DNA of 54,008 nt from an uncultured Candidatus Saccharibacteria bacterium (GTDB lineage: Bacteria; Patescibacteriota; Minisyncoccia; Phycocordibacterales; CALRHW01): positions 230,273-284,280 of the forward strand of contig CAYOUG010000001.1 of assembly GCA_964407105.1 (NCBI GenBank), read 5' to 3'. This document shows, one piece after another, positions 17,062-42,756 of this stretch (position 1 is the stretch's first letter; each line of letters opens with the position of its first letter). The notes beneath the pieces are model-generated. The model searched no databases. It was not told where the DNA came from and was given only the letters and a program-made list of their open reading frames with translations. The translations under genes and the position numbers were made by a program.

Positions 17062-17955
17062 ATGACTAAAACTCTCATTGCATATATCCCCGCACTTCAT
17101 AGTGGCTATGTTAATTTTTTTAAAAAGTATGCGGGCGAGACTTTGTATATTTTAGATTTAAGTTTGGTGCGAGAAATTCCAAGGCTTGAGCGTGACATTC
17201 GCGCGCTTGAAGCGGGGGATATGAAAAAGCTCATTGGTGCGCTTGGAATTTTTTCACGCGTGGGGGTGGTGACGAAAGAAAATATGGCCGAGTTTTTGAT
17301 GGAGGCGCAGGGTGATACAAGAGATTCTGGCGCAAAAAATACTAACACGATCGTGATGCCGGATGAAGATGTGAGTCATATTTTTGCTGAAACATATTTA
17401 ACGGGAAAAGATATGTTTGGCGCGACAAAAGAAATTGAATATGTCTCTGTGTTTTTGCGATGGGACAGACTTGCCGCACTTAAAACTGATGTACCAACAA
17501 ACCCAGACAGAATCATTTCTCGCGACGCATTCGACAAAGAAATAATGGCTCGTGCATTTGCTGATGCACAAAAAAGTTCAGATTGGTGGCGACAGGTGGG
17601 TGCGGTGGTAGTGAAAGACGGCAAGGTGCTTTTTATAGGACACAATCATCCGTTGCCGTCTGATCAGACACACAATGTCACCGGCGATCCACGTAGCAAC
17701 TTTGACGCCGGTGTGAGTATCGAACTTTCAAAATTTTTACATGCTGAAGCGGGCATTATTGCCGAGGCTGCAAAGCGGGGCGTGACGCTCGATGGTGCCT
17801 CTATATATGTCACAACATTTCCATGTCCGGTGTGTGCAAAATCTATTGCCACTGCGGGTTTTAAAAAAGTGTATTACTGCGAAGGCTATTCGCTTCTCGA
17901 TGCGGAGGATATTTTAAAGGGGTTTGGGGTTGAGCTTATTCAGGTCGAGAGGTAA
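17062..17955 (+). CDS. dCMP deaminase/ComEB-like protein with long N-terminal extra domain
   Basis: C-terminal RQVGAVVV, HAE, PCPVC Zn motifs; N-terminal ~150 aa beginning IAYIPALHSGY. Confidence 0.9.
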   Translation: MTKTLIAYIPALHSGYVNFFKKYAGETLYILDLSLVREIPRLERDIRALEAGDMKKLIGALGIFSRVGVVTKENMAEFLMEAQGDTRDSGAKNTNTIVMPDEDVSHIFAETYLTGKDMFGATKEIEYVSVFLRWDRLAALKTDVPTNPDRIISRDAFDKEIMARAFADAQKSSDWWRQVGAVVVKDGKVLFIGHNHPLPSDQTHNVTGDPRSNFDAGVSIELSKFLHAEAGIIAEAAKRGVTLDGASIYVTTFPCPVCAKSIATAGFKKVYYCEGYSLLDAEDILKGFGVELIQVER

Positions 17956-18092
17956 AGACATGTTTGACAATATTTTTTCTTTATGTTATGAATTTATATG
18001 GAACAAGCAAGAATTTTCTTGGAACTGATACGGCAGATTTCCGAAAGTGTATGGTGGGTCTCGCACACCAACAACAAAAGAAAGGAAAAAAG

Positions 18093-18662
18093 ATGAAACC
18101 AGTAATCCTTGATGTAGAAGGGAAAGTTGTCCCTAAAGGAGACAAAAAAAATAGGAGGTTTACACGGGTGTGGGACGGAGGCATCTTCACTGTGCCTCAT
18201 TACTACCATCACCAAAACGGATTCGCTGATTTTAGGATGGCGAATCCCAATCCGCTTTTCCGTGAGAACAAGTTGAGCATCCACGATGATCTCAATGATG
18301 ATCTCATCGAGCCAAGTTATATTCTGAGATCAGGCGTCAGGCTTCACGTAACGGTGTTCAGTCAAGTGGCGCAAAGAACCACTTTAGAAAAACGCCTAGA
18401 ATTTCTCGATGAGCAGGGGGCTGTTTATCCTGGCGCGCGGATTTTTCCTCTTATTTACCACCATTTGCCAAAATTCAGATCGTACGATTCGATCGATAGA
18501 AAGGGTCATCTCACAATCGGTTGTGATGGTTATCCTCTGGTGGCGACGTTGCGTTGTGGGGATCGAAGTGGAAACTTTGTTTTTGGTTTTGAGGAATGCA
18601 ATGGTGTATGGGGGCCCGACGATACCTTCAACCTATTACTTTGTTTCCGTGAGATCAAATAA
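18093..18662 (+). CDS. Hypothetical protein (ORFan; resembles a family expanded in Parcubacteria, tentative)
   Basis: ORF 17964..18662; start placed at ATG 18093 behind AGAAAGGA; C-terminal RLEFLDEQGA...FVFGFEE..W....LLLCF. Confidence 0.55.
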   Translation: MKPVILDVEGKVVPKGDKKNRRFTRVWDGGIFTVPHYYHHQNGFADFRMANPNPLFRENKLSIHDDLNDDLIEPSYILRSGVRLHVTVFSQVAQRTTLEKRLEFLDEQGAVYPGARIFPLIYHHLPKFRSYDSIDRKGHLTIGCDGYPLVATLRCGDRSGNFVFGFEECNGVWGPDDTFNLLLCFREIK

Positions 18663-18718
18663 AAAGGTGCACCTTCAACCTCTTGGGCCCCAGGCTTTAT
18701 CACCTGCGGTCCATTTTT

Positions 18719-19165
18719 TTACCCAATTCTTGCCACCACCGGCTCGTATCCCGTCTCTGTAGGGTCACTTGAAACAAGCTGTGCATGCAAATGTGCGACA
18801 CTTGCGCCGGTATATTTCGTATCTCCAAAACGCATAAAATATGTTGCGCCCGGAATATTGAATTCTTTTATTGCCCAGTTGATAAGCTCAAGTAGACCGA
18901 GTTGTGCCTCGGCAGAGATATCTTGCGTATGTTCAATATGATTTTTATGAATCAAGACAAAATGATTTTTAGTATTTTTATATGGATACATATTGCAGGT
19001 AATGAGCCAGTGGTCGTTTTCATGCAAGATCGGATTTTTGTGATAGAGCGCAAGTTGCTCTGGACAAAATGGACATACCTTATCTTCTTGAATTTTTTCA
19101 AGTACTTTTTTGTATTTGTCATTTTCACGATCTTGTGAATTATTTGGGTTTACAAAATTGGTCAT
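18719..19165 (-). CDS. HIT-superfamily protein, HxHxQ (GalT/Ap4A phosphorylase-like) type
   Basis: CPFC, NMYPY, GASVAHLHAQLV; start re-set to ATG 19165. Confidence 0.85.
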   Translation of the reverse strand: MTNFVNPNNSQDRENDKYKKVLEKIQEDKVCPFCPEQLALYHKNPILHENDHWLITCNMYPYKNTKNHFVLIHKNHIEHTQDISAEAQLGLLELINWAIKEFNIPGATYFMRFGDTKYTGASVAHLHAQLVSSDPTETGYEPVVARIG

Positions 19166-19211
19166 GGTGTGAAATGGAAAGCGTGTAAAAATATGTAATC
19201 GTTTTTGATAA

Positions 19212-20132
19212 TTAAATAGGGGTAGGAATGAGCATTTTTGGATGTGGGTCATAATCAGTGAGCACAAAATGTTCTGGTTTAAATTCAAAAATATCTGTGG
19301 TGTCGGTGTTGAGAGTAACAGTCGGCAATTTTTTCGGTTCGCGTTTTAGAAGCTCTTCTACTTTTTCATACTGACTTTCATAAATATGCGCATCGGAAAA
19401 TGTGTACACGATTTCTTTAAATGTGTAGCCGAGAATTTGTGCAATCATTGCACCAAACGCTGCGTACTGCACCATGTTGAATGGCACGCCAACAGGGAAG
19501 TCGCCTGAGCGCTGGAAGTGGTGAATCGACACTTCTTTTGATTCTGGAAATGCGAGCACGTGAATCCATCCGTGACACGGCGCTACCACGACACGACGCT
19601 TGAGATCTGAATGTTGAATTGTGTATTGTGGAATCCATGGAGAAATAAAATGTGTGCGAAGGTATGGTCGCTCTTTTATTTGCTTTATAACATTTTCAAT
19701 CTGATTAAACGGTGCACCTTCTGCGGTAGGGAATGTTGCCCACGCGGCACCGTATGATCCATCACCAAGATCTCCTTCAGGAAGTCCAAAGATATCACAT
19801 TTTTCTTTTGTCACCCATTTTTTCCACCAGTTGCATCCATATTTTTCAAGCTCGGCTTGTGTGCGAGCGCCGTGGAGAAATGCAAAATGTTCGGCAAGCG
19901 CGCCCGTAAAAAAGGTTCCAGATAAATCTCGCTCACCAATCACAGGAAAACCATTTTCAATCTGATAGCGAAGCTGAAGCCCCACAATCATTTTCGCTTT
20001 TTCGCCTTGCTTGTTACCCGCTAGTGTTCCATGAATGGGAATAATCTCGCGTCCTTCGCGTAAAATTTTTCGCAACGCATCTTGGTACTGTGAATCAATC
20101 GTTCGTTCTGAAATCGGTTTGAAATTCATCAT
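19212..20132 (-). CDS. thyA: Thymidylate synthase (divergent)
   Basis: APCH catalytic Cys, QRSGD, VPFN, DAHIY, C-terminal YDPHP...PTPI. Confidence 0.93.
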   Translation of the reverse strand: MMNFKPISERTIDSQYQDALRKILREGREIIPIHGTLAGNKQGEKAKMIVGLQLRYQIENGFPVIGERDLSGTFFTGALAEHFAFLHGARTQAELEKYGCNWWKKWVTKEKCDIFGLPEGDLGDGSYGAAWATFPTAEGAPFNQIENVIKQIKERPYLRTHFISPWIPQYTIQHSDLKRRVVVAPCHGWIHVLAFPESKEVSIHHFQRSGDFPVGVPFNMVQYAAFGAMIAQILGYTFKEIVYTFSDAHIYESQYEKVEELLKREPKKLPTVTLNTDTTDIFEFKPEHFVLTDYDPHPKMLIPTPI

Positions 20133-20252
20133 GAAAATGGTTTTTCTAGCGCCCTATTAGTAATCCTGTAATTGTACTATTTTTGGATATATAAAAGAAA
20201 TAGTGTGGGTGTGTTACACTATGTGCATATTTATTTGTTACAAAAAACGGCC

Positions 20253-21425
20253 ATGAAAGACAAACAGATTGAGAAATTAATTAAGGCGGAGATGAAACGA
20301 CAAGGAAGTGTTATCAATCTCATTGCGTCGGAAAATTATGTGTCAAAAGACGTGCTTGCGGCACTTGGCTCAGAGCTTACCAACAAATATGCCGAAGGGT
20401 ATCCGGGCAAAAGATATTACGGAGGACAGGCTGTGGTGGATCAAATAGAAATGCTTGCACAATCTCGCGCACTTTCACTTTTTGGTTTGTCGACTAAAAA
20501 TTGGCATGTAAATGTGCAGCCACTTTCTGGTTCTCCTGCAAACGTTGCGGTGTATCTTGCGCTCGTGCCAACACACGGAAAAATTATGGGAATGAGTTTG
20601 GATAGTGGGGGACATCTTACGCATGGACACAAAGTGTCGATGACAGGAAAAATGTGGGAGCAGGTGCCGTTTGAGGTAGATAAAAAGACCGAAGTACTTG
20701 ATTATGTATCACTCAAAAAGCGGGCTGTCGAACAAAAGCCAAACATTATCGTGGCGGGATTTACTGCATATCCACGTATTGTTGATTTCAAAAAATTTCG
20801 AGAAATAGCGGATTCTTGCAGTGCGTATCTTATGGTAGACATGTCGCATTTTGCTGGACTTGTGGCGGGTGGCGCATATCCAACTCCATTTAAATATGCA
20901 GATGTGGTGACGACGACAGTTCACAAAACATTTCGTGGTCCGCGTAGTGCAATGATTTTTGTGAAAAAAGATAAACGTGAACTCGACAAGCTTATAGACA
21001 AAGCTGTGTTTCCAGGCATGCAGGGAGGTCCGCATTTAAATCAAATAGCGGCGGTGGCTGTGGCGCTAAAAGAAGCAGCAACTCCAGCGTTTAAAAAATA
21101 TGCGGCGCAGGTGGTGAAAAATGCACAGGCACTTGCTGGTGAGCTTTCGCGACTTGGTTGGAAAATTATTTCAGGAGGTACAGATAGTCATTTGGTACTT
21201 GTCGATACTTGGATGGGAGGAAAAGGTCTTCCGGGAAAAGAGGCGAGTGCCAAGCTTGAAGCTGCGGGAATTATTGTGAATAAAAATACGATTCCGTACG
21301 AAACACGATCGCCGTTTGATCCATCAGGAATCCGTCTCGGTACTGCTGCAGAAACTACTATGGGCGCAAAAGAAAAAGATATGATTCGTGTTGCTCGGAT
21401 GATTGATACGGTGTTGAGGAAATAA
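20253..21425 (+). CDS. glyA: Serine hydroxymethyltransferase
   Basis: NLIASEN, KYAEGYPGKRYYGG, GGHLTHG, DMSHFAGLVA, TTTVHKTFRGPR. Confidence 0.98.
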   Translation: MKDKQIEKLIKAEMKRQGSVINLIASENYVSKDVLAALGSELTNKYAEGYPGKRYYGGQAVVDQIEMLAQSRALSLFGLSTKNWHVNVQPLSGSPANVAVYLALVPTHGKIMGMSLDSGGHLTHGHKVSMTGKMWEQVPFEVDKKTEVLDYVSLKKRAVEQKPNIIVAGFTAYPRIVDFKKFREIADSCSAYLMVDMSHFAGLVAGGAYPTPFKYADVVTTTVHKTFRGPRSAMIFVKKDKRELDKLIDKAVFPGMQGGPHLNQIAAVAVALKEAATPAFKKYAAQVVKNAQALAGELSRLGWKIISGGTDSHLVLVDTWMGGKGLPGKEASAKLEAAGIIVNKNTIPYETRSPFDPSGIRLGTAAETTMGAKEKDMIRVARMIDTVLRK

Positions 21426-21430
21426 TATAT

Positions 21431-21454
21431 GCGCGCCGTCCGAAGGCGGCGCGC
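21431..21454. repeat. Short GC-rich REP-like hairpin between glyA and dut
   Basis: GCGCGCCG-TCCGAAGG-CGGCGCGC, no T tract. Confidence 0.6.
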
Positions 21455-21461
21455 CACCTAA

Positions 21462-21890
21462 ATGTCACTTACACTTAGAATTAAAAAACTTTCAGCAGAT
21501 GTAACACTTCCACAATACGCGCATCGTGGTGATGCCGCGCTTGATCTGTATGCCAACGTCGCGGTAACATTGCAGCCTGGTGAAAAGACGGCAGTGCCGA
21601 CCGGCATTGCGATGGAAATTCCTGATGGCTACGTGGGCCTCATTTGGGATAAAAGCGGAATTGCGATAAAAGGTGGGCTTAAAACCCTTGGCGGGGTGGT
21701 AGACTCTACATATAGAGGAGAGGTGCTTGTGGGGATTATTAATCTTTCGCAGGAAGTATATACATTTGAACGCGGACACAAAGTAGCGCAGATGATTATT
21801 CAGAAAAAGGAAGACGTCGTGATAGAGGAAGTAAGTGAGCTGTCGGAGACCGCGCGCGGCGAAGGCGGCTTTGGAAGTACCGGCAAATAG
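21462..21890 (+). CDS. dut: dUTP diphosphatase
   Basis: GDAALDL, IWDKSG, GGVVDSTYRGE, VAQMII, RGEGGFGSTG. Confidence 0.98.
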   Translation: MSLTLRIKKLSADVTLPQYAHRGDAALDLYANVAVTLQPGEKTAVPTGIAMEIPDGYVGLIWDKSGIAIKGGLKTLGGVVDSTYRGEVLVGIINLSQEVYTFERGHKVAQMIIQKKEDVVIEEVSELSETARGEGGFGSTGK

Positions 21891-21938
21891 TGGCGCCGCG
21901 CGCAATCAAACCATGATCAAACGCGATTAAAAAAAAGC

Positions 21939-23609
21939 ATGAACAACATACAGCAAATTATAAAAACACAAATTTCAAAACTCGGTTTTGCTCCAGAGAG
22001 TATTGTACTTGCGCGTCCGAAAGATATACAAAATGCCGACTATTCTTTTTTTGTACGAGATCAAAACATTGATCCTGCATCACTTCCACTTGATACGGTG
22101 AAGCATGAATACATTGCATCATGCACAGCCGTGGGCAGATTCATTAACATTTTTCTTTCAGAAACTTTTTTTGTAGAAACTCTTAAAGAAATTCAAACTC
22201 ACGGCACACACTTTGGTGCAAACGAAACATTGTCTGGTAAACAAATGATTTTTGAATATACCGATCCAAATCCATTTAAACAATTCCATATCGGTCACCT
22301 CATGAGCAATGCTATTGGCGAAACACTTTCAAGACTCGCGGCGTTTAGTGGCGCACAGGTGAAGCGGGCAAATTATCAGGGAGATGTGGGACTTCATGTA
22401 GCAAAAGCTATTTGGGGCATGCAAGAGCTTTCAGGAGAAATGCCTCATGCAAAAACAGAGCTTGCAGACAAGGCGGCATTTTTGGGCAAGGCGTATGTGC
22501 ATGGTTCTAGTGCATACGAAGATGACGAAACTGCAAAAAAAGAAATCGACGCCCTCAATAAAATTATTTTTGAAAAATCTGATACAAAAATCCAAGAACT
22601 TTATGATTGGGGTAGAAAAGTGAGTTTGGATTATTTTGAAATTATTTATGCAAAGCTCGGCACTCGTTTTGACTATTATTTCTTTGAAAGTGAAACAGCA
22701 CGTCGTGGTTTGCTTGTGATAGAAGAATTTTTGAAAAAAGGAATTTTTGAAAAAAGCGAAGGCGCTGTGATATTTCGTGGTGAGCAGTATGGCCTGCACA
22801 CACGTGTTTTCGTAAATTCACAAGGTCTTCCTACATACGAAACAAAAGAAATTGGTCTCAATTTAGAAAAATTTGACCGAGGCAATTTTGACGAGTCGGT
22901 CATTATTACTGCAAGCGAACAAAATGAATATTTTTCTGTTGTACTCAAAGCGCTTGAGTTTATAGATTCAAATGTGGTAAATAGGACGCGACATATTGGA
23001 CACGGCATGCTTCGTTTCGCGAGCGGAAAAATGTCATCACGAAAAGGAAATGTGATTACGGGTGAGTCGATGATTGTGGATGTGGAAGCAATGGTGTGGG
23101 AGAAAATTAAAGACAGAGAACAACTTTCTGCCGAACAAAAACGTGAGGTTATGGAACAGGTTGCAGTGGGTGCTATTAAATATTCTATTCTCAAACAATC
23201 TCCGGGCCGAGACATTATTTTCGATATGGAAAAATCGCTTTCGTTTGAAGGCGACTCTGGCCCATACCTGCAGTATGCTCATGCACGCGCGTGTTCTATT
23301 TTAGAAAAAGCAAAAGAAGCGGGGATTATTGCATCGCTTGATACTCCAGAAGCACCAGGAACACTTGAGCGAATGCTTGCAATGTTTCCTGACGTTGTGT
23401 TGCGTGCACAAAACGAACGCGCTCCACAGCTCGTAGCAACATATCTTATAGAACTTGCCGGTGCGTTTAATAGCTACTATGCAAATAATCCGATTGTGGT
23501 TGCAGGTGATCCTGTATCCGCATATCGTGTGGCACTCACTTCTGCCCTTGTGACGGTTATGAAAAACGGTCTTTTTGTGCTCGGTATCCAAGCTCCAGAA
23601 AAGATGTAG
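21939..23609 (+). CDS. argS: Arginine--tRNA ligase
   Basis: EYTDPNPFKQFHIGH, NYQGDVG, KMSSRKG, GDSGPYLQYAHARACSIL. Confidence 0.97.
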   Translation: MNNIQQIIKTQISKLGFAPESIVLARPKDIQNADYSFFVRDQNIDPASLPLDTVKHEYIASCTAVGRFINIFLSETFFVETLKEIQTHGTHFGANETLSGKQMIFEYTDPNPFKQFHIGHLMSNAIGETLSRLAAFSGAQVKRANYQGDVGLHVAKAIWGMQELSGEMPHAKTELADKAAFLGKAYVHGSSAYEDDETAKKEIDALNKIIFEKSDTKIQELYDWGRKVSLDYFEIIYAKLGTRFDYYFFESETARRGLLVIEEFLKKGIFEKSEGAVIFRGEQYGLHTRVFVNSQGLPTYETKEIGLNLEKFDRGNFDESVIITASEQNEYFSVVLKALEFIDSNVVNRTRHIGHGMLRFASGKMSSRKGNVITGESMIVDVEAMVWEKIKDREQLSAEQKREVMEQVAVGAIKYSILKQSPGRDIIFDMEKSLSFEGDSGPYLQYAHARACSILEKAKEAGIIASLDTPEAPGTLERMLAMFPDVVLRAQNERAPQLVATYLIELAGAFNSYYANNPIVVAGDPVSAYRVALTSALVTVMKNGLFVLGIQAPEKM

Positions 23610-23673
23610 AAAGAAGATGGTTTTGGTCCATTTCTTTTTGTAAAAACCCTTAAAAGTGCTAGTATTTTGCTAT

Positions 23674-26600
23674 ATGAACGAACCAGAAAAGAAACCGGTT
23701 TCTAAAAGTCCATCTGCTCAGATTGAAGAAAAAATTCTTGCATCGTGGAAGGAAAATGATATTTTCAAAAAAACCCTTGAAAAGGAAGCTCCTCAAGGGG
23801 ACTTTGTTTTTTACGAAGGTCCTCCTACGGCCAACGGTAAGCCAGGTATTCATCATCTTGAAGCGCGTGCATTCAAAGATATTATTCCGCGATACAAAAC
23901 AATGCGTGGTTTTCATGTGACTCGAAAGGGCGGATGGGATACGCAAGGACTTCCGGTAGAGCTTCAAGTAGAAAAAAAACTAGGTTTGAAGTCTAAAAAA
24001 GAAATTGAAGCGTACGGCGTAGAAAAATTTAATGCACAGTGTAAAGAAAGTGTGTGGGAGTATGTGGATTTGTGGAAGCAATTTACAGATCGTATTGGCT
24101 ATTGGATTGATCAAGAAAATCCGTATGTGACGTATGAAAAAACATACATGGAAAGTGTTTGGAATATTTTGAAAACGGTTTCAGAGCAAAAGGTGGGTGG
24201 CGTGCTTGGTGTGGGTGGTAAGCCAATGCTCTACAAAGATTACAAAGTGGTGCCGTGGTGTCCGCGATGTGGGACGGCGCTTTCATCGCACGAGCTTGCG
24301 CAGGGGTATGAAGATGTAAAAGATTTGTCGGTGTATGTAAAATTTAAGTTGAAAAATCCAACAGAGATTGGATTATCTGGTGACGCATATTTTCTCGCGT
24401 GGACGACAACACCATGGACATTGCCTGGAAATGTAGGACTGGCGGTAGGGGAAGACACTTCATATGTGTTTGTAGAACACGAGAGTCAAATATATATTCT
24501 TGCTGAGTCTTTGTTACAAAAAATATTTAATGAAAAAGATTTTAAAAATATAAAAACTGTTTTAGGAAAAGATTTAGTGGGTTTGCAATACGAACCGCTT
24601 TTTCCATATCTTGTGCAAAAATTTGGTGATAAAAATCCTGAAGCATTTGCGCAGGCATACAAAGTGTATCCAGCGGATTTTGTGACGACGACCGACGGAA
24701 CAGGTATTGTGCACACGGCTGTGATGTATGGTCAGGAAGATTTTGAGCTGGGAACGAAAGTTGGTTTGCCAAAATTTCATCTCGTGCGCGAGGACGGACA
24801 TTTTATTGATGATATGGATTTTCTTTCAGGACGTTTTGTAAAAGAAAAAAATCAAGATGGAAAGCCGACGCTTGATGTAGATATTATTAGTGATTTAAAA
24901 ACAAGAAATCTTTTCTTCGCACAAGAAAATATAAAACATACATATCCGCATTGTTGGCGATGCAAAACGCCGCTCATCTACTACGCGCGCGATTCGTGGT
25001 ACATTCGCATGTCTGCGCTACGCGACAAACTTGTGGCAGAAAATGAAAAAATAAATTGGGAGCCGGGTCATATAAAAGAGGGGCGTTTTGGCGAGTGGTT
25101 GCGTGAGGCGAAAGATTGGGCGATTTCTCGTGAAAGATATTGGGGTACGCCACTTCCTATTTGGACAAATGAAGAAGGTAAAATGATAGTGATCGGCTCT
25201 GTTTCTGATCTTAAGACACACATTCCAAAACGTAATAATTTTATTCTTGTTCGTCATGGACAGTCAGAATCCAATGTCCAGGGTGTTATAAATTGCAATG
25301 TACACACAAAAGATTCTCTTACATCAGATGGTCTTACTCAAGCACAAAAAGCTGGTAAGATTTTGGTTAAAGAAAAAATTGACGTCATTATCACATCACC
25401 ATTTGCTCGCGCGCAAGAAACAGCAAAAATCATTGCACAAGAGATTGGTTTTTCTGGAGATATCATATCTGATGATCGTATTGGCGAACTTCAGGTGGGC
25501 GCGTGGAATGAAAAAACCTGGAGTGAATACGAAACACAATTTAAAAATCTAAAAGAACGCTTTACAAAACATCCACACGCAGAAAAGAGTGAGGGTGGGG
25601 TTGTTGAAAATTGGGAAGATGCGCGTCGACGTGTAGCGGAGTTTATGTATGATATCGACGCGCAATTTGAAGGTAAAAATATACTTTTGGTGGGTCATGG
25701 TGGCACACTTAATCTTATAGCCCTATCTTCTCTTGGATATTCTGTAGAAGAAATTGCTTTCCATTATTATGATAATTCTTTCAGCAATGCAGAGGTACGA
25801 AAAATAGATTGGCGGGCGTTGCCACACAATGCTTTGTATGAAATTGATCTACACAAACCTTTTATTGATTCTGTGGAACTTGTCGATGAAGCGGGAAACA
25901 AACTCACACGTGTAAAAGAAGTTCTTGATGTTTGGTTTGATTCTGGCGCTATGCCTTTTGCACAAAACCATTTTCCTTTTTCGAAAAATACAATGCAGTA
26001 TCCAGCAGATTTTATTTCTGAAGCGGTAGATCAGACTCGCGGATGGTTTTATACCTTACTTGCGATAGGTGTACTTATGGAAAAGGGAAGTGCTTATAAA
26101 AATGTAATTTGTCTCGGACACATTTTAGATGCACAAGGAAAAAAGATGAGTAAGTCGCTTGGAAATATTGTAGATCCTTGGATTATGATTGATAAGTATG
26201 GCGTTGATGCACTTCGACTTTGGATGTATGGCGTTAATCGACCCGGAGATTCTAAAAACTTTGATGAGCAAACTGTAGATGAGATTGTAAAAAAGGTATT
26301 TAATCCGCTCTCAAACATTTTTTCATTTTATGAAATGTATGCTGATAAGAGTGTGACATCGAGGCGCGACAGCACACATGTGCTCGACCGTTGGATATTG
26401 GCGCGCCTCGATGAACTTATTTTGCAAGGCACACGACATCTCGATGAGTTTCAGGTTTTTGAAGCGTCGCGTAGTATACGAGATTTTATTGGAGATTTTT
26501 CTACGTGGTATATTCGTCGATCACGTGACAGATTTAAGTCAGATGACATAGCAGATAAAAAAGCGTCACTTAACACAACCCACTTTGTGCTTCTATCTCT

Positions 26601-27219
26601 TGCTAAATATATGGCGCCGTTTGCACCATTTTTTGCTGAAGAACTTTATCGAAAGATGAATGGTGAGAAAGAAAGTGTACATCTTGATGCTTGGCCAGAA
26701 GTAAATGTGCAAGCTGTGGGCGATGTAATGATTCTTGAAGATATGAAAGAAGTGCGCGAACTTTCGAGTCGTGGACTTGAACTTCGCAATACTGCCGGCA
26801 TAAAAGTGCGTCAACCTCTTTCAAAATTTACAATTAAAAGTGCGCGTCTAGAAGGCCGAAATGATCTACTTTCTCTTGTTGCAGAAGAGTTGAATGTTAA
26901 AGAGGTAGTATTTGATGCTTCACTTGAAAATGAAGCACAACTCGACACCACTCTTACTGAAGCACTTAAAACAGAAGGACGATATCGTGAGGTTGTGCGA
27001 GCGGTACAGGATTTGCGCAAAAAAACAGGTTTAGAACCTCATGATTCTGCTAGGCTTCTAGTGAAAACCAACGCCGAAGGTAAATCATTAATTGAGCAAT
27101 ACAAAAAAGATCTTTCTTCAACATCTCTTCTAAAAGAAATTGTGTATCAAGAAGTAGGGGGGGATACATTTTCTGTTGATAATCTCTCGTTTGTATTTGT
27201 TGTTGAAAAAATAGTTTAA
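23674..27219 (+). CDS. ileS: Isoleucine--tRNA ligase (type 2) with inserted histidine-phosphatase domain
   Basis: EGPPTANGKPGIHH, GWDTQGLPVE, AWTTTPWTLPGN, DWAISRERYWGTP, DQTRGWF, KMSKS; extra RHG...GHGG domain ~25231-25830. Confidence 0.96.
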   Translation: MNEPEKKPVSKSPSAQIEEKILASWKENDIFKKTLEKEAPQGDFVFYEGPPTANGKPGIHHLEARAFKDIIPRYKTMRGFHVTRKGGWDTQGLPVELQVEKKLGLKSKKEIEAYGVEKFNAQCKESVWEYVDLWKQFTDRIGYWIDQENPYVTYEKTYMESVWNILKTVSEQKVGGVLGVGGKPMLYKDYKVVPWCPRCGTALSSHELAQGYEDVKDLSVYVKFKLKNPTEIGLSGDAYFLAWTTTPWTLPGNVGLAVGEDTSYVFVEHESQIYILAESLLQKIFNEKDFKNIKTVLGKDLVGLQYEPLFPYLVQKFGDKNPEAFAQAYKVYPADFVTTTDGTGIVHTAVMYGQEDFELGTKVGLPKFHLVREDGHFIDDMDFLSGRFVKEKNQDGKPTLDVDIISDLKTRNLFFAQENIKHTYPHCWRCKTPLIYYARDSWYIRMSALRDKLVAENEKINWEPGHIKEGRFGEWLREAKDWAISRERYWGTPLPIWTNEEGKMIVIGSVSDLKTHIPKRNNFILVRHGQSESNVQGVINCNVHTKDSLTSDGLTQAQKAGKILVKEKIDVIITSPFARAQETAKIIAQEIGFSGDIISDDRIGELQVGAWNEKTWSEYETQFKNLKERFTKHPHAEKSEGGVVENWEDARRRVAEFMYDIDAQFEGKNILLVGHGGTLNLIALSSLGYSVEEIAFHYYDNSFSNAEVRKIDWRALPHNALYEIDLHKPFIDSVELVDEAGNKLTRVKEVLDVWFDSGAMPFAQNHFPFSKNTMQYPADFISEAVDQTRGWFYTLLAIGVLMEKGSAYKNVICLGHILDAQGKKMSKSLGNIVDPWIMIDKYGVDALRLWMYGVNRPGDSKNFDEQTVDEIVKKVFNPLSNIFSFYEMYADKSVTSRRDSTHVLDRWILARLDELILQGTRHLDEFQVFEASRSIRDFIGDFSTWYIRRSRDRFKSDDIADKKASLNTTHFVLLSLAKYMAPFAPFFAEELYRKMNGEKESVHLDAWPEVNVQAVGDVMILEDMKEVRELSSRGLELRNTAGIKVRQPLSKFTIKSARLEGRNDLLSLVAEELNVKEVVFDASLENEAQLDTTLTEALKTEGRYREVVRAVQDLRKKTGLEPHDSARLLVKTNAEGKSLIEQYKKDLSSTSLLKEIVYQEVGGDTFSVDNLSFVFVVEKIV

Positions 27220-27238: not shown

Positions 27239-27832
27239 ATGTCTCATCATATTTATACGACAGAAGCTTTTGTGATTGATAGTACACCCTTTGGCGAGGC
27301 AAATTCATTTATACATTTATTTACACGCAATTTAGGATTTATCTCTGCGAGCGCACGAAGTGTGCGGGTGGTGAAATCAAAATTGCGCTATGGTTTACAA
27401 GACTTCTCACATTCAACGGTTGCTCTTGTTCGTGGAAAATATGAATGGAAAATTACAAATGTTGTACCGCACGATAATGTGTACTATACAAACAAAAATG
27501 ATCACAACGTGCTTGCTGTTTGTACACACGCACTAGCCCTTATTAAAAAACTTGTGGTTGGAGAAGAAAAAAATGAAATACTTTTTGATATTATTTTAAA
27601 CGCCTTTTCTTTTTTGCAATCACATACACTTACTTCTAAAGAACTTTTTAATGCTGAATGCATATTAATGCTTCGTCTTATCGAAAATCTTGGCTATTTA
27701 CGTGCTGATATTTTGCTTAAACAGTTTACAAAAGACACACACTGGAATATTGAACTTATAACTGATATGGCGCAACACCAAAGACATGCAGTTGTAGAAA
27801 TTAACAATGCTATAAAAGAAAGTCAGTTATAG
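27239..27832 (+). CDS. recO: DNA repair protein RecO-like
   Basis: N-terminal OB (EANSFIHLFTRNLGFISASARSVRVVKSKLR) plus helical C-terminus. Confidence 0.8.
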   Translation: MSHHIYTTEAFVIDSTPFGEANSFIHLFTRNLGFISASARSVRVVKSKLRYGLQDFSHSTVALVRGKYEWKITNVVPHDNVYYTNKNDHNVLAVCTHALALIKKLVVGEEKNEILFDIILNAFSFLQSHTLTSKELFNAECILMLRLIENLGYLRADILLKQFTKDTHWNIELITDMAQHQRHAVVEINNAIKESQL

Positions 27833-27858: not shown

Positions 27859-29811
27859 ATGGCTTTTTCTCATGAAGAGGGGAATATAGACCGAGCAGAG
27901 CGTGATTTGTATTCGCGTAATGCACCACCACGTACTGAACCACCCCGCAGTACGTTTACACCACATTCTTATAATGTTTCAAATGAACCCAAACAAGATC
28001 CATTTTCGAACGCTCTTAAACGTGAATTAGAACCAGAGGAGCATATTCCAAAACAGCCGTGGGGATTTTTTAAGAAGTTTTTTATTGGATCGATTATATT
28101 TTTTTCACTAGCGGTGATTTTGTTTGTGTATATGTCATTTGGAGGTTTCAATACTGTCTCATCAAAAAATGTAGATATTTCAGTGCGCGGTCCTGTGGCG
28201 GTGGGTGGTGGTGAAGAACTCATTTTAGATATAATCGTAACAAACAACAATAGTGTATCTCTCGAAGGTGCGGAGCTTTCGATTGAATATCCAAGCGGTA
28301 CACGCGAAGCATCAGATCTAAATATAGAGCTTGTTCGTCAAAAAGTATCGATTGGAGATATTGGTGAAAAAGAAAGTGTTACCAAAACAGTAAAAGCTGT
28401 GCTTTTTGGTGAAAAAAATAGTATTAAAAATATTAAAGTAACTATAGATTACAAAGCGAAAGGTGCAAACGCAAAATTTTCAAAAGAGAAAAATTATGAA
28501 ATTGCTATAAAATCCTCGCCAATACTTTTATCTGTAGAATATCCGAAAGAGGTTAATAGTAATCAACCGATGGATTTTAAGGTAACCGTTGTTTCAAATT
28601 CAAATACCGTCACCCAAAATGTACTTTTGCGTATTGATTATCCTTTTGGTTTTAGTTTTAATAATGCGACGCCAAAACCATCTTTCGATAATAATGTGTG
28701 GAGCATTGGAGACCTTAATCCAAAAGAAATTCGTACTATAAGTATTGCTGGAAAAATGGAAGGACAAAATGATGAAGAAAAAACATTCAGATTTACTGCT
28801 GGTACATCTGATCTTAATGATGAAAAAGTTGTTGGAGTAGATTTTATTTCAATTGCAGAATCCGTGGCTATTCGTAAGCCTTTTTTTGATATAAAACTTT
28901 CATTAGAGGGGGATAGTAGTAAAGATCCAATTTCTTCAAAAATAGGTCAGGTTATCGACGGAAAACTTACCTGGACAAACAATTTAGCTACAAGTATAAA
29001 TGACGTTGTGGTAGAAGTAACGCTCAGTGGAAATGCATTAAATCGTGATGAGGTTTCAGCAAGTCAGCAAGGATTTTATCAATCAGTAAATAATAGAATT
29101 ACTTGGGATAAACGCGTATTTCCTAAATTTTCTCAGGTAGACCCCGGTCAAACAGGTGATCTTGATTTTCAATTTGAAACACTTAAGCCGACATCACAAG
29201 TTTTAGCTGCATTACGAAATCCAAAAGTTGGTTTGGATGTTCTTATCACAGGTATTCGTTTTTCTGAAACACAACCTCCAGAAAAAATTTCTTATGCTTT
29301 TTCTCGTGAACTTAAAGTAAATACTGAAACAATATTTAATCCGCGTATGATATATTCTACCGGTCCCTTTGATAATACTGGGCCAATTCCACCAAAAGCT
29401 GAAAAGACAACAACCTATACTGTCTTTTGGACAATAAGTAATTCTTTTAATGATATTGGCAATACAACTATCACAGCAGCCCTTCCTCCAAACGTGAAAT
29501 GGGTTGGTACAAAAAGTCCTCTTACTGAAAAAATAATGTACAACGAAGCTAGTAACAAAGTAATTTGGGAACCTGGAGAAATAAAGGCTGGTGTCGGGTT
29601 TACGGGTTCTCCTCGTGAGGTGGCATTTCAAGTTTCTTTTTTACCATCCCTTGGTCAGGTGGGAGATACACCAGATATTATTGAAGCTATGATATTTACA
29701 GCCCTAGATCGATTTACAGGTAAGGAAATAACAATCAACAAACCCGCTCTTAATACACGCATCAGTACTGATCCAGAATTCAATTTTGGAGATGATGTGG
29801 TTGTAAAGTAA
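27859..29811 (+). CDS. Large membrane-anchored protein with tandem Ig-like/DUF11-like domains
   Basis: One TM at ~aa 73-95 then repeated beta-rich units (e.g. VLLRIDYPFGFSF...WSIGDL; ITAALPPNVKW...WEPGEI). Confidence 0.7.
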   Translation: MAFSHEEGNIDRAERDLYSRNAPPRTEPPRSTFTPHSYNVSNEPKQDPFSNALKRELEPEEHIPKQPWGFFKKFFIGSIIFFSLAVILFVYMSFGGFNTVSSKNVDISVRGPVAVGGGEELILDIIVTNNNSVSLEGAELSIEYPSGTREASDLNIELVRQKVSIGDIGEKESVTKTVKAVLFGEKNSIKNIKVTIDYKAKGANAKFSKEKNYEIAIKSSPILLSVEYPKEVNSNQPMDFKVTVVSNSNTVTQNVLLRIDYPFGFSFNNATPKPSFDNNVWSIGDLNPKEIRTISIAGKMEGQNDEEKTFRFTAGTSDLNDEKVVGVDFISIAESVAIRKPFFDIKLSLEGDSSKDPISSKIGQVIDGKLTWTNNLATSINDVVVEVTLSGNALNRDEVSASQQGFYQSVNNRITWDKRVFPKFSQVDPGQTGDLDFQFETLKPTSQVLAALRNPKVGLDVLITGIRFSETQPPEKISYAFSRELKVNTETIFNPRMIYSTGPFDNTGPIPPKAEKTTTYTVFWTISNSFNDIGNTTITAALPPNVKWVGTKSPLTEKIMYNEASNKVIWEPGEIKAGVGFTGSPREVAFQVSFLPSLGQVGDTPDIIEAMIFTALDRFTGKEITINKPALNTRISTDPEFNFGDDVVVK

Positions 29812-41750: not shown

Positions 41751-41900
41751 AAGGACTTTACAATTGTCCCTTTACGTTCTATAATGGACATATTCAAAAT
41801 CTTTAAAAAGTCCTTGATATATAACAGACATTAAATCAGGGACAATAAAAGACAAAAACATGGACGAAAAAATAGATAAAAATACCAATTCAGGACAAGA
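41751..41900. promoter_or_regulatory. Array of (G/A)GAC(A/T)-core motifs in both orientations in the ftsK / HTH-gene divergent spacer
   Basis: AAGGACTT, TTGTCCCT, TGGACAT, AAGTCCTT, CAGACAT, AGGGACAA, AAGACAA, TGGACGA, AGGACAA within ~150 bp. Confidence 0.5.
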
Positions 41901-42756
41901 GAAAAGCTCTAATTCTGGAAAAGAACTAGATAATACAAACCTTTTTAGTCATCTTGGTATATCAGACAAAAACTTTCTATTTCAGTATAAAAAGACAGAA
42001 AAGATACTTGCGGCACTTTATCTTGTTACAAATTTTTTACCAAACCAAGAACCCTTGAGATGGGAAGTACGTGAGTTGGGATTGAATCTTCTTTCGAGTG
42101 TAATGTCTTTGAAAGATGCATTACCATCACAAAAAGATGAGTTGTGCACAATGATCAAAACAATTGTTCTTGAGATGATTTCTTTGTTAGAAATTGCATA
42201 TTTTGCTGGTTTTATTTCTGCGATGAATTTCGAGGTTCTTAAAGGAGAATTTGTTGTTTTACTTGGATCTGTTTCTGTTACAAAACAATCGCTTGAATCA
42301 TTTGTATTACCCAATAATTTCTTTGTTGATAACACTTCTATATCTGGAGGCAATTCGATATCTACTGATTATTCACGTGCACCACTTGCGGATAATTTTG
42401 ACCGATCAATACGTGCCAACAATATAAAAGACAATTCATTTATTGGTGTATCAACATTATCAAAAAATAATTCTTCACAAAATTTTCATAAAGGACAGAA
42501 TAATAAAAAAACGGCCACCCCCAATATCTTTTCAGAAAAGAAAACATACGGCTCTGTTCTTATAAAAAAGACCAGTAGACAGACGGTTATTATTGATCTT
42601 TTAAAAAAGAAAAAAGAGATCATGATAAAGGACGTTTCTGCTGTTATAAAAAACTGTAGTGAGAAAACACTACAACGCGAACTTCTTTCTATGGTAGAAC
42701 AGGGTATCCTAAAAAAAGAAGGTGAGCGTCGTTGGAGCAAGTATTCTCTTGCATAA
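41860..42756 (+). CDS. Hypothetical protein: N-terminal helical bundle, low-complexity linker, C-terminal DeoR-like winged HTH
   Basis: RQTVIIDLLKKKKEIMIKDVSAVIKNCSEKTLQRELLSMVEQGILKKEGERRWSKY. Confidence 0.8.
   Translation: MDEKIDKNTNSGQEKSSNSGKELDNTNLFSHLGISDKNFLFQYKKTEKILAALYLVTNFLPNQEPLRWEVRELGLNLLSSVMSLKDALPSQKDELCTMIKTIVLEMISLLEIAYFAGFISAMNFEVLKGEFVVLLGSVSVTKQSLESFVLPNNFFVDNTSISGGNSISTDYSRAPLADNFDRSIRANNIKDNSFIGVSTLSKNNSSQNFHKGQNNKKTATPNIFSEKKTYGSVLIKKTSRQTVIIDLLKKKKEIMIKDVSAVIKNCSEKTLQRELLSMVEQGILKKEGERRWSKYSLA

Follow-up and report, generated by a model that had tools for sequence, protein, structure and literature searches.

A 54,008 nucleotide stretch of an uncultured Patescibacteriota genome (contig CAYOUG010000001.1, positions 230,273 to 284,280; hereafter "the window") encodes a type-2 isoleucyl-tRNA synthetase (IleRS) that carries a second, apparently active enzyme inside it: a complete branch-1 histidine phosphatase, inserted in frame in the CP3 subdomain. 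In Patescibacteria this phosphatase is tied to IleRS in three ways, as a ~190 aa gene abutting ileS, as a domain nested in CP3, or as 2-4 copies that also occupy other internal sites of the synthetase, and we consider it probable, although well short of certain, that the phosphatase is a functional partner of IleRS. An original prediction, made from the letters of the window, had placed an in-frame domain of the phosphoglycerate mutase (PGM) family at 25231-25830, between the RYWGTPLPIW and DLHKPFID segments of IleRS. Those nucleotides do translate to residues 520-719 between these two segments, within one open reading frame (ORF); the domain matches the branch-1 histidine phosphatase family PF00300, and all four motifs quoted for it are present, in the contexts ILVRHGQSESN, TSPFARAQETA, DRIGELQVG and NILLVGHGGT. 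New relative to that prediction are the separate phosphatase gene upstream of ileS, the variants with several copies or other sites, the placement in CP3 and the GIHH signature of the synthetase. Coordinates of the gene, its parts and its neighbors are collected in Table 1.

By profile match and by catalytic core alike, the insert is assigned to the branch-1 superfamily represented by PF00300 (His_Phos_1). This Pfam family is matched at residues 524-713 when the whole protein is scanned (E 3.4e-37), and residues 520-719 alone reach E 9.4e-39 with 133 bits, covering positions 2-186 of the 194-position profile; across both scans the scores were 128-133 bits against a gathering cut-off of 21.7. 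The insert aligns along its full length with ~200 aa PhoE, CobC, PspA and related structures, and in both length and end-to-end alignment it resembles PhoE of G. stearothermophilus (1ebb/1h2e), CobC (6nru/6e4b), PspA (4ij5) and a 203 aa protein labeled 'phosphoglycerate mutase' (9mmh), sharing with the small branch-1 phosphatases the motif set RHG...SPxxR...E...GES...R...HG. Both catalytic histidines that had been claimed for it are there, as are two arginines, an asparagine and the predicted proton-donor glutamate. Among 108-111 full-length fusion proteins, 40-70% identical, R527, H528, N534, S575, R579, E645 and H675 never vary; conservation is 99% at E605 and R653 and 97% at G529. The corresponding pattern, RH(G/A)-N-S-R-E-E-R-H, recurs in nearly all of 301 domain copies, including those from multi-copy and stand-alone proteins. 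Mean pairwise identity is nonetheless only 41.5% for the insert versus 62.7% for the IleRS core, and a domain that diverges faster than its host yet holds its catalytic set points to selection for catalysis. All catalytic positions are thus under purifying selection across hundreds of species, and their 99-100% conservation in more than 100 diverged relatives fits the active enzyme that the original prediction had thought probable.

Every specific NCBIfam model scored against the insert (dPGM, CobC, PspA, GpmB, SixA) remained below its cut-off, and we therefore describe it as a branch-1 phosphatase of undefined specificity. A cofactor-dependent phosphoglycerate mutase (dPGM) was rejected on TIGR01258 (34 bits versus 81.7) and on the dPGM_arch model NF038349 (95 versus 225); at E605 the insert reads ELQVG where dPGMs have E-R-H-Y-G. 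The alpha-ribazole phosphatase CobC (TIGR03162, 94 bits versus 162.9), the phosphoserine phosphatase PspA (NF045917, 72.7 versus 350) and the phosphohistidine phosphatase SixA (TIGR00249, 33.5 versus 74.5, with just the N-terminal third aligned) were rejected likewise. The two-step phospho-histidine mechanism that we infer from the superfamily would have H528 attack the phosphomonoester and E605 protonate the leaving group, after which water would hydrolyze the phospho-histidine and free phosphate.

The synthetase around the phosphatase is intact. Its gene is a single unbroken forward-strand ORF ending at 27219, of 1181 codons from the ATG at 23674 or 1187 from an alternative GTG at 23656. The whole product scores 882 bits on the TIGR00392 ileS equivalog (cut-off 621), matches PF00133, PF09334, PF08264 and PF19302 in Pfam, and possesses the type-2 C-terminal domain DUF5915; the equivalog score, DUF5915, and the class I and CP1 editing motifs together make it a type-2 IleRS (IleRS2). 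The editing motifs are TTTPWT at residue 244 and GTGIVH at residue 342; within the family, neither T244-T249 nor, in GTGIVH, G342, G344 and H347 show any variation. The G/AXHH variant of the HIGH signature, found here as GIHH, has been tied in IleRS2 to mupirocin hyper-resistance (Brkic et al. 2023, PMC10485003). Related loci show both HYGH and G(I/V)HH signatures, each in nested form and in operon form, by which we mean a separate phosphatase gene beside ileS. The mupirocin-resistance enzymes MupA and MupB are relatives of the window protein, which is not a member of either family (NF000257 and NF000258, 735 and 783 bits versus 1900).

A structure model of the window IleRS (AlphaFold2, 108 relatives) has a mean predicted local distance difference test score (pLDDT) of 92.3 and a predicted template modeling score of 0.84, and its closest Protein Data Bank structures are P. 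megaterium IleRS2 (8c8v), yeast IleRS with tRNA (8wnd) and T. thermophilus IleRS (1ile). Fold and domain order (Rossmann fold, CP core, CP1 editing domain, CP2, CP3, anticodon-binding domain, type-2 C-terminal domain) are those of P. megaterium IleRS2 (8c8u/8c8v), T. thermophilus 1ile and the G/AXHH enzymes (PMC10485003), and Foldseek aligned the model to IleRS2 structures with E 5e-91 and a TM-score of 0.79 against the target. Unlike known IleRS2, the window protein has ~195 extra residues, a whole second enzyme, in a CP3 loop, and has lost the cysteines of the CP3 zinc knuckle.

When residues 522-715 are taken out, the flanks become collinear with residues 436-603 of T. thermophilus IleRS (1ile); what gaps remain are short and confined to the splice-point loop, apart from a single one of 3 residues farther along. 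The phosphatase is therefore a clean insertion of ~195 residues in one loop, between the equivalents of T. thermophilus K482 and P483. This loop belongs to CP3 as delimited in the IleRS structures of yeast and Candida (PMC7955072, PMC7191050), a variable subdomain that bears a zinc knuckle in T. thermophilus. All four knuckle cysteines (CxxC...CxC) are replaced in the window IleRS, which reads TNEE... and DEAGN at residues 498-501 and 738-740 (about 25165-25180 and 25885-25900). The knuckle is kept by T. thermophilus IleRS, P. megaterium IleRS2 and operon-type Paceibacteria IleRS and lost in the clade of the window; two IleRS of the nested type (loci L083 and L084) retain it. Model pLDDT is 92-96 across both junctions, above 90 in most of the phosphatase and 81-88 around residues 631-650, so that the domain is predicted to be rigidly docked on IleRS.

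An architecture this unusual could arise from a chimeric assembly, or could hide an intervening sequence (intron, intein or mobile element) whose removal precedes maturation of the enzyme. Beyond the oddity itself nothing supports such an explanation, to which we assign practically no weight. A 17.5 kb contig covers both junctions with 0 differences, and a contig from a separate activated-sludge study, covering 24900-26163, does so with 5. Wastewater metatranscriptome contigs at 25062-25473 and 25694-25998 each cross one junction; no joints or indels were seen, and the fused frame is transcribed. The product contains no intein or Hint domain by Pfam, and the G+C content of the insert (0.38-0.42) is similar to that of its flanks. 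PF00133 and PF00300 occur together in 120 of 120 related clusters listed from NCBI, JGI, ENA and Logan (~1120-1220 aa, down to 40% identity over the region), and nested IleRS is found in at least 278 species-representative genomes, whose labels include Paceibacterota, Taylor-, Nomura-, Zambryskii- and Yonath-bacteria and Minisyncoccia. Misassembly, the danger foreseen in the original prediction, and removal of the insert at the RNA level are thus excluded: the fusion is lineage-wide, and independent assemblies as well as RNA contain it. Runs X2 and X5 also yield an unrelated second contig whose match is confined to the 41 nt at 25111-25151, which encode RYWGTPLP; beyond them its sequence diverges, and it presumably represents the IleRS of a different organism from those samples.

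The insert alone was searched against 1.84 billion representatives and the matches were domain-mapped. The best 150 representatives matched were all either IleRS or free-standing proteins; among the latter, two-domain histidine phosphatases (~410 aa) look like ordinary GpmB/CobC-type proteins of other bacteria and were set aside. Loci were sampled by similarity to the phosphatase, and the counts that follow describe carriers; trees were built with FastTree and midpoint rooted. Stand-alone homologs of ~185-195 aa are encoded between argS and ileS, directly upstream of an ileS without insert and on the same strand, in genomes labeled Nealson-, Wildermuth-, Staskawicz- and Azam-bacteria, Minisyncoccales and others. 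The gap between phosphatase and ileS is mostly -8 to +10 nt and lies between -10 and +10 nt in 36 of 41 such cases, whereas argS and the phosphatase are loosely spaced, with a median of 47 nt and a maximum of 4 kb. A genuine ileS follows the phosphatase gene: at locus L085, where the phosphatase has 191 aa, the 960 aa IleRS scores 739 bits on TIGR00392. At two loci, L127 and L144, a tandem pair of stand-alone phosphatase genes precedes the insert-less ileS.

Nested and stand-alone forms are mutually exclusive. Among 121 near-complete ileS genes, 77 have a nested domain and no upstream phosphatase gene, 42 have one or two upstream phosphatase genes and no nested domain, 2 have neither, and 0 have both. 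The IleRS-core tree requires about 10 switches between nested and operon forms, and each state occurs with HXGH and with GXHH motifs. Some IleRS hold 2-4 phosphatase domains, spread over several places within the protein. Tandem copies in CP3 are one arrangement; other copies follow the AMPFAQxHYPF segment, separate the catalytic from the anticodon-binding domain or lie within the latter, and in one case a copy sits close to the CP core. In the multi-copy examples P0125, P0147, P0170, P0184 and P0190 the catalytic residues are intact in each domain, and the domain tree often places copies from one IleRS closer to other domains than to one another. Every copy is internal, with N- or C-terminal phosphatase fusions in 0 of 139 proteins.

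Two further IleRS genes in this sample have unusual compositions. A 1066 aa protein (P0205) combines an IS200-like Y1 transposase domain in its N-terminal half (residues 340-461) with a histidine phosphatase (680-854) and a GNAT acetyltransferase (935-1063). At L084, a second, degenerate IleRS-like gene (L084:7083-10112, forward strand) lies directly downstream of a normal nested-type ileS; its product scores 320 bits on TIGR00392 (cut-off 621), has a shortened N-terminal part, and matches the phosphatase profile only from position 23, leaving the RHG region unaligned.

A gene-fusion (Rosetta-stone) pattern, tight gene coupling, mutual exclusion of forms and repeated internal nesting together make functional partnership the best reading of these data. 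The phosphatase would be an active enzyme dedicated to assisting IleRS, present 1:1 and in cis in the window genome, and its substrate would be something that IleRS binds or makes. If the two do work together, our leading, though still tentative, candidate is a small monoester of nucleotide type in or close to the synthetic site, above all AMP, which is released in the transfer step and whose removal would relieve product inhibition or reversal. AMP leads because it is the sole monoester that IleRS makes and because the Km(ATP) of IleRS2 is high, at 0.39-3.4 mM (PMC10485003). Homology, too, favors small-molecule substrates. CobC, for one, acts on a nucleoside 5'-phosphate analog.

Under the same condition of joint action, a tRNA(Ile) whose A76 is blocked by a 2'/3'-phosphate or pyrophosphate is a somewhat weaker candidate. 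Such a block could come from a metal-independent RNase or from a tRNA-specific toxSAS toxin (CapRel/FaRel2-type); toxins of the latter class are known to pyrophosphorylate the CCA end (bioRxiv 10.1101/2021.04.30.441581; PMC11559606), which gives the tRNA-repair idea a real rationale. The domain, with a median pI of about 6, is not basic, which argues against a tRNA-end substrate. We also know of no nucleic-acid-directed member of the histidine phosphatase superfamily. The full proposal, in which the phosphatase, nested or (in sister lineages) co-translated, gives a class Ia synthetase a third active site besides synthesis and editing and clears these groups from A76 of the tRNA(Ile) held by IleRS, making it chargeable, seems to us rather improbable; if true, it would be the first nucleic-acid-directed histidine phosphatase and a built-in counter to tRNA-end toxins. 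An inhibitory phosphate on IleRS itself would be less likely again than a blocked tRNA end, and other substrates account for the rest. Detoxification of adenylate-mimic antibiotics was judged chemically unlikely, these being phosphodiesters or phosphoramidates rather than monoesters. The roles first proposed for a tethered phosphatase (repair of 3'-phosphorylated tRNA, removal of a phospho-metabolite or inhibitor, dephosphorylation of IleRS) thus stay the principal candidates, next to a passenger account that the original prediction had not weighed.

Functional partnership must be weighed against the possibility that the phosphatase is a passenger: a housekeeping enzyme (a broad-specificity, phosphoserine or sugar-phosphate phosphatase) or short mutase with no mechanistic link to aminoacylation, whose gene stood beside ileS in an ancestor and was repeatedly absorbed into a strongly expressed essential gene, gaining expression. 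We regard this as a serious but distinctly less probable account, and several observations speak for it or against partnership. The active site is generic to the PhoE/CobC/GpmB group, with no residue that indicates a nucleotide, RNA or protein substrate, and no specific NCBIfam model reaches its cut-off. The domain is near-neutral (median pI 6.0) and therefore not a typical RNA binder. Copies occupy four or more surface sites, 1-4 per protein, and such variation in site and number argues against one precise geometry. Unrelated enzymes are nested in IleRS of the candidate phyla radiation (CPR) as well, namely the GNAT and IS200-like domains of P0205 and a Nudix domain in candidate phylum SR1 (Kantor et al. 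2013, PMC3812714), so the gene may simply tolerate passengers. The order argS-ileS-recO is conserved across the class (argS in the same cluster in 112 of 160 related loci, recO in 94 of 160), and part of the adjacency signal is therefore shared ancestry. Divergence of the phosphatase is only weakly correlated with that of the IleRS core (r = 0.21), and hydrolysis of AMP would be wasteful for a purine auxotroph. Set against this, the stand-alone gene almost always abuts ileS within 10 nt while its spacing from argS is loose, and the association spans HXGH and GXHH IleRS2 groups through about 10 changes of form. Loss of a single stop codon in a stand-alone gene abutting ileS would yield an N-terminal fusion, the simplest neutral route, yet all observed events are internal. 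No phosphatase-argS fusion was present among the loci examined, and the window argS has no phosphatase match. An insertion in an essential catalytic core should be purged unless it is at least harmless, and this one appears, from junction pLDDT, to be kept rigidly docked.

The insert might instead be catalytically silent, acting as a phospho-metabolite sensor or as a stand-in for the lost CP3 zinc knuckle and tuning IleRS without hydrolysis. Its predicted rigid docking would suit such a role, as would the loss, in the clade of the window, of the four CP3 cysteines that operon-type relatives keep, since the insert could then stabilize CP3. But a scaffold needs neither a nucleophile nor a proton-donor Glu, whereas the nucleophile His, both Arg, Asn, Glu and second His are 99-100% conserved in all forms; moreover, the nested forms at L083 and L084 still have the knuckle, and the stand-alone forms cannot act as a CP3 scaffold. 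We consider a silent module very unlikely, well behind the passenger account, and retain an active, IleRS-coupled phosphatase as the preferred reading.

Partial parallels exist among known systems. Free-standing PhoE, CobC and PspA differ from the window domain in that the latter is nested and comes from a Patescibacteria clade with a constant link to ileS. A PhoE/CobC-like phosphatase is also joined to a nucleic-acid enzyme in the bifunctional RNase H/CobC-like acid phosphatase of the M. tuberculosis Rv2228c type (PRK07238), whose phosphatase half is matched by the insert at E 3e-24 (86 bits, versus a cut-off of 326); that fusion, however, is terminal rather than nested and involves another partner enzyme. 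IleRS with an N-acetyltransferase domain (NF040702) is a precedent for a second enzyme domain in IleRS, although the window IleRS lacks a GNAT domain and, at 326 bits, falls short of the model cut-off of 1999. The closest precedent bears on the earlier claim that canonical IleRS contains no such domain, which stands with one footnote: IleRS interrupted by PGM-family domains had been noted in 2013 for SR1, in a one-sentence remark without analysis (Kantor et al. 2013, PMC3812714). Nesting of a PGM-family domain in a CPR IleRS is common to both cases; phylum, copy number and partner domain differ, the window having one domain, in CP3, in a Paceibacteria-type genome. The nested CP3 phosphatase is thus a kind of architecture noted before in another CPR lineage, without study. 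Our literature search found no functional study of a phosphatase-bearing IleRS, and the single-domain CP3 form, its spread, the alternation of operon and nested forms and the invariance of the catalytic residues were not found in print.

Table 1. Coordinates of ileS, its nested phosphatase and conserved neighboring genes in the window
Feature	Position	Strand	Basis
argS, 556 aa ORF, conserved upstream neighbor	21939-23609	+	read as ArgRS from sequence
ileS, type-2 isoleucyl-tRNA synthetase with nested phosphatase	23674-27219	+	ORF, translation, TIGR00392, AlphaFold2 model
IleRS N-terminal part, aa 1-520: first Rossmann half, CP core, CP1 editing domain, CP2, start of CP3	23674-25233	+	PF00133 at aa 21-517
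Class I signature GIHH at aa 58-61, a non-canonical variant (G/AXHH) of HIGH	23845-23856	+	read from sequence
Nested histidine phosphatase domain, aa 521-719, in CP3 loop	25234-25830	+	PF00300, structure alignment, flank alignment
RHG motif R527/H528/G529; H528 is the predicted phospho-accepting nucleophile	25252-25260	+	R527, H528 invariant
N534, phosphate-pocket residue	25273-25275	+	invariant in relatives
R579, second phosphate-pocket Arg (SPxxR motif)	25408-25410	+	invariant in relatives
E605, predicted general acid/base (proton donor)	25486-25488	+	99% conserved
H675, second catalytic His (HG motif)	25696-25698	+	invariant in relatives
IleRS C-terminal part, aa 720-1181: remainder of CP3, second Rossmann half with KMSKS, anticodon-binding domain, DUF5915	25831-27216	+	PF09334, PF08264, PF19302
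KMSKS, aa 824-828	26143-26157	+	read from sequence
recO, conserved downstream neighbor outside the module	27239-27832	+	RecO_N and RecO_C matches

In a six-frame scan of the window the phosphatase profile matched only inside ileS; argS, the methionyl-tRNA synthetase (MetRS) and a class II synthetase were without match, and Pfam scans of the MetRS and class II synthetase likewise returned no phosphatase domain. Upstream, 17062-23609 holds a dTMP-synthesis block ahead of argS-ileS, comprising a dCMP-deaminase-domain protein, thymidylate synthase (reverse strand), serine hydroxymethyltransferase and dUTPase. After recO, at 27859-29811 (forward strand), lies a 650 aa protein with a DUF11 repeat, a family that occupies this position in 103 of 160 related loci. 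Two forward-strand ORFs, 17964-18662 (232 aa) and 41860-42756 (298 aa), have no Pfam match at E <= 0.001. A literature search linking HipA to IleS found nothing.

Few enzymes have been studied as closely as the aminoacyl-tRNA synthetases, and those of bacteria are credited with no more than two catalytic sites, one for synthesis and one for editing. In hundreds of species of a major uncultured radiation, an essential synthetase is accompanied by a fully equipped second enzyme, either inside it or alongside, and nature supplies matched versions in cis (nested) and in trans (operon) for comparison. Should the phosphatase prove a passenger, it would be a clear example of reduced genomes nesting whole enzymes in essential genes. 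If it instead acts on a ligand of IleRS, whether AMP, a blocked tRNA end or the synthetase itself, then the making or protection of Ile-tRNA would include an unrecognized step, and this would be a pointer to what limits translation in ultra-small, energy-poor symbionts.

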